Shown: in pieces, positions 49,133 to 55,916 of the stretch
How positions within the stretch are numbered: the stretch's first letter is position 1
Layout of the letters: every line of letters begins with the position of its first letter
Assembly: GCF_003018255.1 (NCBI RefSeq)
Contig: NZ_CP027440.1
Origin: Escherichia coli
Lineage (GTDB): Bacteria; Pseudomonadota; Gammaproteobacteria; Enterobacterales; Enterobacteriaceae
Direction: 5' to 3' (one strand)
Length of the DNA: 64,000 nt
The notes under the pieces: generated by a model
Told to the model about the DNA's origin: nothing
Databases searched by the model: none
Seen by the model: only the letters and a program-made list of their open reading frames with translations
Translations under genes and position numbers: made by a program

Positions 49133-50383
49133 CTACGCTAAGCCAATAAAGAATCCTGCAATGGTTGCACTCATCAGGTTAGAAAGTGTCGCCGCCGCCA
49201 GCGCGCGTAAACCAAGCTGGGCGATTTCCGGTGCACGGTGTGGCGCAACCGCAGAAAACGCCCCCACCACCACCCCGATAGAACCAAAGTTAGCGAAACC
49301 GCACAACGCGAAGGAAATAATCGCCACGGTTTTAGCATCCAGAGTGCCAGCCGTTTGCAGATAGGGTGAGAAATTGAGGTAAGCGACAAATTCATTTATT
49401 GCCAGTTTCTGTCCAATCAAACTCCCGGCAAGATTCGCATCACTCCAGTCAACACCCATTACCCACGCCAGTGGGGCCAGCAGGTAACCTAAAATGGACT
49501 CCAGCGAGGCATGTTCAAAGCCAAACCAGCCGCCAACGCCGCCGATAATACCGTTAATTAACGCAATGATGGCGACAAATGCCATCACTACTGTCGCCAC
49601 ACCTGCGGCGATTTTCAGCCCGGTCATTGCCCCTGTCGCAGCGGCTTCAATAATGCTTTTTGGCGGTGTTTCGGTGAAAGAGAGGTTATTAAAGGAAACC
49701 TGCGAAGATTCTGTTGCCGGGCTTAACAGGCGGGCAAACAAGATCCCGCCGGGGATCGCCATTAACGATGCCGCCAGCAGATATTCCACAGGCACGCCCA
49801 GTGCGGCGTAACCAATCATTGTCGAACCAGCAATCGAGGCCATCCCGCTACAAATCGCTGTAAATAATTCATTGCGATTCAGACGATTGATAAAGGGTTT
49901 GACGATTGCCGGAATTTCGTTTTGCCCGAGGAAAATGGTAGTGACCGCGACGAATGACTCGATCTTGCTGATATTCAATGCTTTCTGGAAGATACCGCCG
50001 AGAATGCGAATTAAGATCCCCATCACACCGATGTAGTAGAGAATACTCACCAGTGCTGTAACGAAGATAATTGCCGGTAATACCCTGAAACCAAAGATAA
50101 ATCCTGCGCCATCAAATAAGGTATCCATTTTTGGTCCGACCAGAGAACCAAAGATAAATGCGCTACCTGCATCGCTGTACGCCATCACTTTATGCACGCC
50201 AAAAGCGACTTTTTCTGCGACCCAACGCCCTGGTGGTAACCAAAGCATAATGCCGCCAATCACGACCTGTAACACTAACGCCGCGCCAACGGTACGCAGG
50301 CTGATCTTCTTCTTGTTTACTGACAGCAAAAACGCAATTGCCAGCAATACCACCATTCCCAGAACACTTCTCATGACATCCAT
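49133..50383 (-). CDS. nupX: NupC-family nucleoside permease NupX
   Basis: 416-aa polytopic ORF; close paralog of the psuT ORF in this window. Confidence 0.9.
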   Translation of the reverse strand: MDVMRSVLGMVVLLAIAFLLSVNKKKISLRTVGAALVLQVVIGGIMLWLPPGRWVAEKVAFGVHKVMAYSDAGSAFIFGSLVGPKMDTLFDGAGFIFGFRVLPAIIFVTALVSILYYIGVMGILIRILGGIFQKALNISKIESFVAVTTIFLGQNEIPAIVKPFINRLNRNELFTAICSGMASIAGSTMIGYAALGVPVEYLLAASLMAIPGGILFARLLSPATESSQVSFNNLSFTETPPKSIIEAAATGAMTGLKIAAGVATVVMAFVAIIALINGIIGGVGGWFGFEHASLESILGYLLAPLAWVMGVDWSDANLAGSLIGQKLAINEFVAYLNFSPYLQTAGTLDAKTVAIISFALCGFANFGSIGVVVGAFSAVAPHRAPEIAQLGLRALAAATLSNLMSATIAGFFIGLA

Positions 50384-50408
50384 AGTTATTATCTCTTCAT
50401 GTCATTTT

Positions 50409-50436
50409 GGGCGACGGCTTTCTGCCCATCAGAAAT
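50409..50436 (-). promoter_or_regulatory. conserved leader hairpin motif upstream of nupX (copy 1)
   Basis: plus-strand GGGCGACGGCTTTCTGCCCATCAGAAAT shared 27 of 28 with the psuT leader; mRNA stem GAUGG/CCGUC. Confidence 0.35.
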
Positions 50437-50482
50437 AGCCGGGCCTGCATCTTGCGATACTGTCCCGGCTTGTTATCAACAC

Positions 50483-52319: not shown

Positions 52320-53570
52320 TCAAGCTAAACCAATAAAGAACCCGGCAATGGTCGCGCTCATCAGGTTGGAAAGCGTTGCTGCTGCCAGCGCCCGTAAACC
52401 AAGCTGGGCGATTTCCGGTGCGCGTTTTGGCGAAATAGCCGAAAATGCCCCAACGACAACACCGATAGAACCAAAGTTAGCAAAACCACAAAGCGCAAAG
52501 GAGATAATCGCAATGGTTTTCACTTCCAGCGTGCCGCCCGTTTGCAGGTATGGGGAGAAACTCAGGTAAGCGACGAATTCGTTAATCGCCAGTTTCTGCC
52601 CAATCAGGCTACCCGCAAGATTGGCATCACTCCAGTCCACACCCATGATCCACGCCAGCGGTGCCAGCACATAGCCAAAAATACTTTCCAGAGAGGCATT
52701 GGCGAAACCAAACCAGCCGCCAATTCCGCCGATAATGCCGTTGATCAGCGCAATAATTGCGACAAACGCCATTACAACCGTCGCCACACCAGCGGCGATT
52801 TTCAGCCCGGTCATCGCACCGCTCGCCGCCGCTTCGATAAAGCTTTTTGGCGGCGTTTCGCTGAACGACAGATTTTCAAATGTCACCTGCGAAGGCTCGG
52901 TGGCTGGGCTAAGAATACGTGCAAACAAAATACCACCAGGGATCGCCATCAGCGATGCCGCTAACAGGTAGTCAATTGGTACGCCCATTCCGGCATAACC
53001 AATCATCATCGAACCAGCAATGGACGCCATCCCGCTACAAATTGCGGTAAACAACTCGTTGCGATTCATGCGATCGATAAACGGTTTAACGATCGCCGGG
53101 ATCTCATTTTGCCCGAGGAAAATAGTGGTAACCGCAACAAAAGATTCGATTTTGCTGATGTTGAGGGCTTTCTGGAAAATGCTGCCAAGGATGCGAATCA
53201 GCAGCCCCATCACGCCAATGTAGTACAGCAGACTGATGAGCGCAGTGACGAAGATAATCGCCGGAAGTACGCGAAAGGCGAAGATAAAACCCGCACCGTC
53301 AAAGAGGACATCCATTTTCGGCCCGACCAGCGAACCAAAAATGAAGGCGCTACCGGCATCACTGTAAGACATCACTTTATGAACGCCTAATGCCGCCTGT
53401 TCTACCGCCCATTTTCCTGGTGGAAAATAGAGCATGATTCCGCCAATGGCGATTTGTAGCAGCAACGCGGCTCCAACCGTGCGCAAACTGATGCTCTTTT
53501 TATTCACTGACAACAGAAATGCTATTGCCAGTAACACCACCATCCCCACAACACTTCTCATTATATCCAT
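52320..53570 (-). CDS. psuT: NupC-family pseudouridine/nucleoside transporter PsuT (YeiM)
   Basis: 416-aa polytopic ORF; close paralog of nupX. Confidence 0.9.
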   Translation of the reverse strand: MDIMRSVVGMVVLLAIAFLLSVNKKSISLRTVGAALLLQIAIGGIMLYFPPGKWAVEQAALGVHKVMSYSDAGSAFIFGSLVGPKMDVLFDGAGFIFAFRVLPAIIFVTALISLLYYIGVMGLLIRILGSIFQKALNISKIESFVAVTTIFLGQNEIPAIVKPFIDRMNRNELFTAICSGMASIAGSMMIGYAGMGVPIDYLLAASLMAIPGGILFARILSPATEPSQVTFENLSFSETPPKSFIEAAASGAMTGLKIAAGVATVVMAFVAIIALINGIIGGIGGWFGFANASLESIFGYVLAPLAWIMGVDWSDANLAGSLIGQKLAINEFVAYLSFSPYLQTGGTLEVKTIAIISFALCGFANFGSIGVVVGAFSAISPKRAPEIAQLGLRALAAATLSNLMSATIAGFFIGLA

Positions 53571-53636
53571 ATTGATTTTCCCTTCATGCCAGTAAACCCG
53601 GCGTCAGCGCCAGGTTTTGGTATGCTTGATGAGTAC

Positions 53637-53664
53637 GGGCGACGGCTTTCTGCCCGTCAGAAAT
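53637..53664 (-). promoter_or_regulatory. conserved leader hairpin motif upstream of psuT (copy 2), overlapping psuG stop
   Basis: plus-strand GGGCGACGGCTTTCTGCCCGTCAGAAAT; mRNA stem GACGG/CCGUC. Confidence 0.35.
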
Positions 53665-54602
53665 TAACCCGCGAGACGCTGGTATTCTTTGGCTATTTCA
53701 CTCGCCAGGATGGCGTTGTTGAACACCAGCTGGATGTTGGATTTCAGGCTGTCACCGCCGGTCAACTCAGCAACGCGCGCCAGCAGGAATGGCGTACTTT
53801 CTTTACCAATAACACCCTGCGCTTCAGCTTCAGCTACCGCCTGATCGATCGCCGCATTGATAGTGTGTTCCGGCATAGCAAACTGTTCCGGAATCGGGTT
53901 CGCTACCACGAGGCCACCGTTCAGCCCGCTTTGCCATTTCACCGCCATTGCACGGGCAATTTCGCTGGCGCTGTCGAGACGAATGCTCACGTCAAACGGG
54001 CTGGTGCGGCAGAAAAACGCAGGCAGCGCTTTGGTCTGATAGCCAATTAGCGGTACACCGAAAGTTTCTAAATATTCGGTAGTTAAGCCTAAATCGAGAA
54101 TAGATTTCGCCCCGGCACAAACGACGGTGACATTGGTGTGCGCCAGTTCTTGCAAATCGGCAGAAATATCGAAGGTATGTTCCGCCCCGCGATGCACACC
54201 ACCAATTCCCCCGGTGGCAAATACTTTAATTCCGGCAAGCGCCGCAATAATCATCGTTGAAGCAACGGTGGTTGCACCATTTTTTCCGGCGGCAACAACA
54301 AAAGGTAAATCGCGACGACTAACTTTGGTCACGTTATGCCCTTCACGACCCAGCAATTCAATTTCTTCTTTGCTTAAACCCACTTTCATCACGCCGCCAA
54401 TAATGGCGATAGTGGCAGGTACAGCGCCCTGTTTACGAATAGTTTCTTCAACTTCAATTGCGGTCTGGGCATTTTGTGGGAACGGCATCCCGTGAGAAAT
54501 AATGGTCGATTCCAGCGCCACAACCGGTTTTTTGTTTTTTAAAGCGTCCTGCACTTCCGGGGAAATTTGTAATAATTCAGGGGAAATTTTTAATTCAGAC
54601 AT
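53664..54602 (-). CDS. psuG: pseudouridine-5-prime-phosphate glycosidase PsuG (YeiN)
   Basis: 312-aa ORF, IndA/PsuG family; overlaps psuK stop. Confidence 0.92.
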   Translation of the reverse strand: MSELKISPELLQISPEVQDALKNKKPVVALESTIISHGMPFPQNAQTAIEVEETIRKQGAVPATIAIIGGVMKVGLSKEEIELLGREGHNVTKVSRRDLPFVVAAGKNGATTVASTMIIAALAGIKVFATGGIGGVHRGAEHTFDISADLQELAHTNVTVVCAGAKSILDLGLTTEYLETFGVPLIGYQTKALPAFFCRTSPFDVSIRLDSASEIARAMAVKWQSGLNGGLVVANPIPEQFAMPEHTINAAIDQAVAEAEAQGVIGKESTPFLLARVAELTGGDSLKSNIQLVFNNAILASEIAKEYQRLAG

Positions 54603-55771: not shown

Positions 55772-55797
55772 AAAAAAGGGCAGAAATTAATCTGCCC
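55772..55797 (-). terminator. rho-independent terminator about 160 nt downstream of fruA
   Basis: minus-strand hairpin GGGCAG-N8-CUGCCC followed by U6 run. Confidence 0.6.
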
Positions 55798-55916
55798 TTG
55801 AGGAAATAACCTTAGTGTTTGATGAAAGTTTCAGGTTTCCACTAAAAGATAAAACCATTTAAATTCATAAAATTACATTCACAAACCGGTCATTCTCTTT
55901 GCGCGCATCAAATGTT

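Follow-up and report, generated by a model that had tools for sequence, protein, structure and literature searches.

Two conserved hairpins in the psuG-psuT intercistronic spacer of Escherichia coli and their possible role in operon polarity

The window, a 64,000-nt stretch of E. coli DNA (contig NZ_CP027440.1), contains yeiI, nupX, rihB, yeiL, psuT, psuG, psuK and fruA around the spacer under study, as assigned from the E. coli annotation. Pfam domains agreed with this annotation (PsuG, Indigoidine_A; PsuT, NupC-type). Compared with E. coli chromosomes, the window was at most 99.4% identical over 4 kb and 100% identical over 281 nt. The psuKGT genes are the E. coli pathway for pseudouridine salvage and, to our knowledge, almost nothing is known about their regulation; a literature search found no publication on the psuG-psuT leader. 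The original prediction had placed a leader at 53571-53663, and this interval is exactly the 93-nt psuG-psuT spacer on the minus strand, bounded by the psuG stop codon and the psuT start codon. MG1655 coordinates are obtained by adding 2203765 to those of the window, which places the spacer at MG1655 2257336-2257428. The features referred to in the text are the following.

49133-50383, minus strand: nupX (annotation).
50407-50429, minus strand: nupX-side copy of SL1, AUGGGC...GCCCAA, with U:A in place of C:G (covariance model, 37.3 bits).
50437-50470, minus strand: two-tier post-rihB hairpin AGCCGGG...CCCGGCU, then AUUUCU, upstream of the nupX SL1 (-19.8 kcal/mol, z = -4.6).
52320-53570, minus strand: psuT (annotation, Pfam).
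53568-53570, minus strand: psuT start codon (annotation).
53579-53584, minus strand: psuT Shine-Dalgarno sequence AAGGGA, read from the sequence, with conserved spacing to the AUG.
53585-53624, minus strand: extended SL2, CAUACCAAAACCUGGCG-CUGA-CGCCGGGUUUACUGGCAUG, 40 nt (folding), ending 1 base short of the GAAGGG Shine-Dalgarno region.
53594-53617, minus strand: SL2 core, AAACCUGGCG-CUGA-CGCCGGGUUU, 10 bp, one of them a conserved U.G pair (folding).
53594-53596, minus strand: UUU, the short U tract of SL2.
53625-53634, minus strand: C/A-rich linker ACUCAUCAAG with a conserved AUCA(A/G) box, unpaired in the RNAalifold consensus.
53635-53657, minus strand: SL1, stem ACGGGC/GCCCGU with the 11-nt loop AGAAAGCCGUC (folding, covariation, covariance model).
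53637-53664, minus strand: 28-nt block AUUUCUGACGGGCAGAAAGCCGUCGCCC, 27/28 identical to the nupX leader (alignment).
53664-53666, minus strand: psuG stop codon UAA (TAA), whose last A opens the block common to the nupX leader.
53664-54602, minus strand: psuG (annotation, Pfam).
55776-55799, minus strand: fruA terminator, a canonical intrinsic terminator used for comparison.

Read from the minus strand, the mRNA of the spacer is UAA-UUUCUGACGGGCAGAAAGCCGUCGCCCGUACUCAUCAAGCAUACCAAAACCUGGCGCUGACGCCGGGUUUACUGGCAUGAAGGGAAAAUCAAUAUG. The predicted overlap of the psuT-side hairpin copy with the psuG stop codon was borne out, the block taking in the last A of UAA. The sequence common to psuT and nupX is UUUCUGAYGGGCAGAAAGCCGUCGCCC, and in E. 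coli genomes the SL1 block occurred at a median of 2 sites, those of psuT and nupX. Two candidate reading frames touching the spacer were rejected. The ORF at 53586-54050 (plus strand), which starts within the spacer, was treated as spurious because it had no Pfam match and is antisense to psuG. The AUG in GGCAUGAAGGG would open a uORF without a Shine-Dalgarno sequence, in a frame that differs among Citrobacter strains, and Klebsiella and Enterobacter have no AUG there.

Leaders for comparison were drawn from species-representative genomes (at least six close relatives), from contigs encoding 88-91% identical transporters together with divergent E. coli alleles, and from a metagenome scan anchored on the conserved coding start alone and so unbiased as to the leader. 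The scan yielded at least 120 contigs with at least 61 distinct upstream regions; by cluster look-ups, new leader types were assigned to Citrobacter, Klebsiella, Enterobacter and Leclercia, and one to an accessory E. coli cluster. Leaders were classed as psuT-type where the transporter gene follows psuG and as nupX-type where it follows rihB. A single plan was common to both types, running from SL1 through an AUCA(R)..AUACC(R)AAA box and SL2 to the Shine-Dalgarno sequence, and the AUCA(A/G) box of the linker was kept in both alike. RNAalifold applied to 14 orthologous leaders predicted SL1 and SL2 and no other structure.

The order of the genes themselves was fluid in other genera (loci L082, L083, L085/L086 and L087). 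Enterobacter has rihB-nupX-psuK-psuG-psuT on a single strand, and Klebsiella michiganensis has psuKGT without rihB-nupX at the same site. In K. spallanzanii, yeiL-rihB-transporter lies beside setB/fruBKA with psuKG not nearby, and Buttiauxella has rihB-nupX only. In E. coli SF-088 and SCU-115, nupX has been cut to a 66-nt pseudogene remnant right after the leader (L093:7577-7642 and L095:7577-7642, equivalent to window 49133-50383), with rihB and yeiI retained.

Folding analyses gave SL1 a free energy of -10 kcal/mol (z = -2.9), and its stem was supported by covariation. Across 45 distinct sequences from at least 10 genera, 91.9% of cells were paired and 22 were double-change cells; none of 500 shuffles matched the observed pairing or covariation, and a register shift abolished the signal. 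The first variable pair was C:G in 29, U:A in 9 and U:G in 4 sequences, with 3 unpaired cells, and the second was G:C in 42, A:U in 2 and G:U in 1, with none unpaired. The outer pair was A:U (12), G:C (11) or G:U (4). Loop positions G10, G14, G17 and U18 (alignment A4) were at least 90% conserved and C15 mostly so. A candidate extra pair after a bulged A was GC in 37, GU in 4 and AU in 1, suggesting that the loop may comprise a bulged A plus one more G-C pair. The alternative pairings UUUCUG/CAGAAA and GACGG/CCGUC, of which single-sequence folding had chosen the second, were rejected because they were unconserved and covariation backed YGGGC/GCCCR. The wobble pairs show that the structure works in the sense RNA. 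A DNA operator or an antisense-strand structure was likewise rejected, G.U and U.G pairs fitting sense RNA alone.

SL1 occurred in three contexts, upstream of psuT, of nupX and of an accessory copy of psuT, and is a module separate from SL2 that is common to all three. Its distance to the start codon varied from about 24 to about 62 nt, so that it behaves as an autonomous module. The covariance model scored 40.8 bits at psuT; model R1 found nothing significant upstream of distant NupC homologues (74 loci). A search of Rfam release 15 at E values up to 10 returned no credible family, the best overlap being isrJ at 18.9 bits against a gathering threshold of 37 (E = 7). SL1 is thus an unannotated RNA motif with covariation support in the best-studied bacterium.

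These properties bear on the idea that the spacer is a regulated leader, in which SL1 with its conserved loop would bind some factor acting in trans, be it protein, sRNA or small molecule, that coordinately controls psuT, nupX and the accessory psuT, with SL2, where present, as the output terminator. A covarying stem with conserved loop positions in three paralogous contexts and at least 10 genera is what such a leader would show, as are the variable spacing expected of an autonomous binding module and the absence of SL1 from Rfam; moreover, psuT and nupX mRNAs were recovered on Hfq with CpxQ and CyaR, though in the coding region (PMC7213987). Against this, RNAalifold on the 14 leaders yielded two independent hairpins only and no conserved antiterminator pairing, and a search from -200 to +1300 relative to the start codon found no conserved pairing partner for the loop. 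A complement of the loop at about +520 of the coding region was rejected as merely Phe-Thr-Ala codons with no covariation with the loop. E. coli has no further copies of SL1 and thus no regulon; as a ligand pocket the motif would be small, and in two lineages (L089 psuT and L125) SL1 has been swapped for unrelated hairpins. A regulated leader is considered quite unlikely. Very doubtful, too, is the more specific proposal that SL1 is the recognition hairpin of a novel trans-acting regulator (RNA-binding protein, sRNA or nucleoside-derived ligand) that would coordinate the uptake of pyrimidine nucleosides and pseudouridine, with SL2 as its regulated terminator; if true, it would make SL1 a new riboregulatory motif in E. 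coli.

The second hairpin had been predicted as CCUGGCG-CUGA-CGCCGGG followed by a short U tract. This element was present and is followed by UUUAC, but its real extent is longer, a hairpin of 40 nt. The 7-bp GC core closed by the tetraloop had a predicted stability of -11.4 kcal/mol, and pairing of AAA with UUU extended it to 10 bp and -14.9 kcal/mol (z = -3.9), a value reached by none of 200 shuffles. Pairing of the flanking CAUACC with UGGCAUG gave the extended hairpin (-19.0 kcal/mol, z = -4.9). In 27 distinct leaders the ten core pairs were about 98% paired. The 3' arm with the U tract, GCCGGGUUU, was invariant in these leaders and the 5' side variable; changes in the core were one-sided and of the wobble type (U.G to C-G, A-U to G.U, G-C to G.U), those of the stem as a whole were almost all compatible with wobble pairing, and no double-sided compensatory change was found in this main SL2 family. 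The loop was free to vary (CUGA, UUGA, CUAA, UUAG, AUAA, UAAA, GAUC, GCUC, UUUA and others) while the arms stayed complementary. On the opposite strand the conserved U.G pair would turn into a C.A mismatch, so that it is the mRNA strand that functions. The basal helix was about 60% paired, with weak covariation: CCA/UGG was CCG/CGG in leader L145 and CCG/UGG in L001, and there was a mismatch in K-12.

Within E. coli, the SL2 40-mer was single-copy in 5402 of 5426 genomes (median 1 place per genome); among 5408 matching records, 3753 were identical and 1651 had one mismatch. A REP/BIME element, another dispersed repeat or a mobile element was rejected, SL2 being single-copy and the SL1 block having a median of 2. 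In two lineages SL2 was replaced at the same position by another hairpin without a U tract. In the accessory E. coli cluster (L106) this hairpin is UACCUGAACCAGA...UCUGGUUCAGGUA, with a 14-bp stem of -22.5 kcal/mol followed by UAAGGGG, and Entomohabitans (L089) has GCCCGGU/ACCGGGC followed by GCUCG. The accessory psuK-psuG-psuT cluster (metagenome contig, L106:5517-9854) has a convergent yeiI-like kinase gene and adjoins an inovirus Gp2-family gene. Of 5426 complete E. coli genomes, about 388 carry it with at least 95% identity, at other chromosomal sites, and its leader retains SL1.

Among the matches listed, SL2 was present in all of about 52 distinct psuG-psuT leaders and in 2 of 23 rihB-nupX leaders, and every psuG-adjacent leader had a hairpin of -11.9 kcal/mol or lower between SL1 and the Shine-Dalgarno sequence. 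Both hairpins are conserved, SL1 with covariation, which answers the question of conservation attached to the original prediction. Most of the remaining rihB-adjacent leaders had a strong hairpin (about -10 to -27 kcal/mol), mostly without a U tract, between the rihB stop codon and SL1, so that SL2 and the post-rihB hairpin were largely complementary in distribution among nupX-type leaders; the Buttiauxella leader L082 and the Enterobacter nupX leader had neither. As a rule, therefore, a single strong hairpin separates the enzyme gene from the transporter gene, this being SL2 in psuKGT, and the hairpin at 50437-50470 fills in the nupX leader the role of SL2 in the psuT leader.

The extra sequence of the psuT leader had been described as an insertion of about 45 nt. 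The leader does contain 41 extra bases relative to that of nupX, but the polarity is probably the reverse, with loss from nupX. SL2 was present in the nupX-type leaders of K. spallanzanii and K. pasteurii (L087, L126), and the nupX-type leaders L011 and L089 retained the AUCAGACAUACC(R)AAA box. Several nupX-type leaders had the junction ...CAGACCUGGCAU, reading ...AUCAGACCUGGCAU..., the expected product of a deletion between the CUGGC repeats that flank SL2, and hence look like deletions; a still larger deletion was seen in the nupX leaders of K-12 and of the window. On parsimony, the ancestral leader most likely had SL2, and the nupX leader of E. coli lost it by deletion. For the Klebsiella nupX leader, gene conversion from psuT may be an alternative because the first codons of Klebsiella nupX are psuT-like.

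Four-fold degenerate sites of psuT served as the reference for the spacer. For E. coli against Citrobacter, four-fold identity was 0.29-0.41 and spacer identity 0.76-0.80; the corresponding values were 0.35-0.41 and 0.64-0.67 between E. coli and Klebsiella/Enterobacter, and 0.59-0.85 and 0.91-0.98 among E. coli alleles. This comparison indicates that the entire spacer is under purifying selection. A functionless relic, with the similarity of the two leaders due to duplication of psuT/nupX or to gene conversion between them, is conceivable insofar as the two proteins share about 90% identity and their genes are separated by 3 kb, so that conversion is possible. It is already contradicted by the conservation and covariation data, the spacer being far more conserved than synonymous sites, SL1 being upheld by compensatory changes, and SL2 being almost invariant in 5402 genomes between unusually polymorphic genes; its probability is close to negligible.

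At synonymous sites, the psuG and psuT alleles of E. coli (window 52320-54602) were unusually divergent, with four-fold identities of 0.59 to phylogroup-B2-like strains and 0.85 to K-12, and 1192 E. coli records matched the 4-kb region at just 80-90%. This suggests old alleles or frequent import at the locus. The spacer hairpins were nearly invariant despite this polymorphism.

SL2 is built like an intrinsic terminator with a truncated U tract: an A tract leads into a GC stem closed by a tetraloop, and UUU follows. It resembles the fruA terminator in energy per base (0.63 and 0.62, respectively), in the U's right after the stem and in the upstream A tract, and differs from it in tail weight (2.5-2.7 for E. 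coli SL2 versus 3.5) and in being intra-operon, 15 nt from the psuT Shine-Dalgarno sequence. The tail weights of SL2 ranged from 2.5 to 3.2 (2.7 for the core here), and that of an ideal tract is 5.2. A terminator scan asking for 5 or more U's among the 8 bases that follow the stem did not call SL2, because just 3-4 U are found there (UUUACUGG, with 4 U in 8; the K-12 sequence, with 3). No psuG/psuT 3' ends were among the listed entries of the supplementary tables of PMC7815308 (Term-seq, Adams 2021) and PMC10687069 (TRS), in which the operon was probably poorly expressed. Termination at SL2 is plausible from these modelled properties. The UUU is invariant while its A partners change, which suggests that the U's do more than pair and favours leaky termination. 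Given the two replacement hairpins lacking U's, termination cannot be the universally conserved function.

The GC-rich SL2 with its A/U flanks lies directly against the psuT ribosome-binding site. In the model preferred here, the stem followed by UUU(U) would cause a fraction of polymerases to terminate, as at a leaky intrinsic terminator, and in read-through mRNA SL2 and SL1 would block 3'-to-5' exonucleases after cutting of the psuT segment. By either route the message for psuT, the membrane transporter, would be lower than that for the enzymes psuK and psuG. Since both routes would lower psuT relative to psuKG, they were combined as an intra-operon polarity element, that is, a leaky terminator and/or a decay barrier. 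This is the account of SL2 to which we tentatively incline, with somewhat less than even confidence. That SL2 terminates transcription, hinders decay and shifts the expression ratio is our inference from the features described above. The rplL-rpoB intercistronic attenuator of E. coli is an intra-operon intrinsic attenuator. SL2 is like attenuators of this type in having a GC-rich hairpin and then U's between cistrons, with partial read-through and a lower level of the distal gene expected. It differs in its U tract of 3-4 U that the scan did not call, in the two lineages without U's, and in having no 3' end among the entries of the tables searched.

That the hairpin is the universally retained feature favours a role as a decay barrier or in processing. 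A pure stability or processing function would have SL1 and SL2 not terminate at all and instead shield psuKG from 3' exonucleases, as in malE-malF, or protect the 5' end of a psuT mRNA released by processing, as in papBA. Consistent with this, the hairpin and not the U tract was kept in every lineage listed, including the two without U's, and the post-rihB hairpins of nupX-type leaders are strong and mostly without U's. Protective intercistronic structures and differential decay of operon segments have been described in E. coli and are conserved in Salmonella and Enterobacter, the surveyed examples including the malE-malF 3' structure and the papBA 5' hairpin (PMC5927463). The psuG-psuT spacer is likewise a stable structure between genes, conserved among enteric genera. 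It differs in that SL2 is single-copy and no REP element, and in that no conserved RN|WUU is adjacent. In E. coli and Citrobacter, an RNase E-like AA|UUU overlaps the end of psuG and lies just upstream of SL1; it is absent from the linker and from Klebsiella and Enterobacter, and no consensus RNase E site (RN|WUU) was conserved beside the hairpins in the leader sequences compared. In addition, the supplementary files of PMC5927463 that were searched did not list psuKGT as an operon with differential decay, for which low expression could be the cause, and a simple barrier has no need of a UUU that stays invariant even when its A partners change. A function in stability or processing alone is accordingly regarded as possible but unlikely.

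The position of SL2 raises a further explanation, namely that SL2 beside the Shine-Dalgarno sequence sets the initiation of psuT translation by insulation, partial occlusion or standby, or that psuT has a transcript of its own, started at a promoter within psuG, with the spacer as 5' UTR. In all lineages listed, 0-8 nt separate the base of SL2 from the Shine-Dalgarno sequence, and in Klebsiella the basal UACC/GGUA helix overlaps UAAGGA. A genomic SELEX peak of the RpoS holoenzyme lies inside psuG (old K-12 coordinate 2255672; PMC5493296), and this peak, at about window 53880 by an estimated coordinate conversion, may be an internal promoter for psuT. It leaves room for a separate psuT transcript and counts against the polarity-element reading. 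A promoter scan, on the other hand, found no promoter-like site on the minus strand at 53571-53900, the basal helix is the poorly paired and poorly covarying part of SL2, and nupX, without SL2, keeps a near-identical Shine-Dalgarno context. An effect on translation or a 5' UTR of this kind is judged very unlikely.

The psuG-psuT spacer is a structured intercistronic RNA, formed in the sense strand and conserved, with SL2 tied to the psuG-psuT junction. It resembles Rfam cis-regulatory leaders in having a short 5'-leader hairpin with a covarying stem and a conserved loop upstream of transporter genes, and differs from the families of release 15 in that neither SL1 nor SL2 matched any above the gathering threshold. 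The conserved, mutually exclusive structures of an attenuation switch and the multi-helix aptamer of a riboswitch were not found, the leaders having two independent hairpins only. By analogy, the spacer would act in the manner of intra-operon attenuators or of protective structures between cistrons. Tuning of an operon by polarity is of an ordinary kind, previously undescribed at psuG-psuT, and a spacer with conserved structure would account for a single promoter yielding less of the membrane transporter than of the soluble enzymes. Should both hairpins be simple stabilisers, they would be one more case of a common operon-tuning device. Both psuT and psuG are now manipulated for the production of pseudouridine (PMC13090712, PMC10552469), so that such a spacer would also matter for strain engineering.

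Two observations from published data concern neighbouring sequences. A Term-seq 3' end at MG1655 2253044 (plus strand; PMC7815308), at about window 49280 (plus strand), lies about 250 nt beyond the stop codon of yeiI, antisense to the 3' part of nupX, and probably is the end of the convergent yeiI transcript. Hfq CLASH recovered CpxQ-psuT chimeras (4 hybrids, -33.1 kcal/mol) as well as CpxQ-nupX and CyaR-nupX chimeras (PMC7213987), and the psuT and nupX mRNAs may accordingly be sRNA targets in their early coding regions. The CpxQ-psuT chimeras map to psuT codons 6-22 or thereabouts (window ~53503-53553, minus strand), where UGUGGGG of psuT lies opposite the CpxQ seed.
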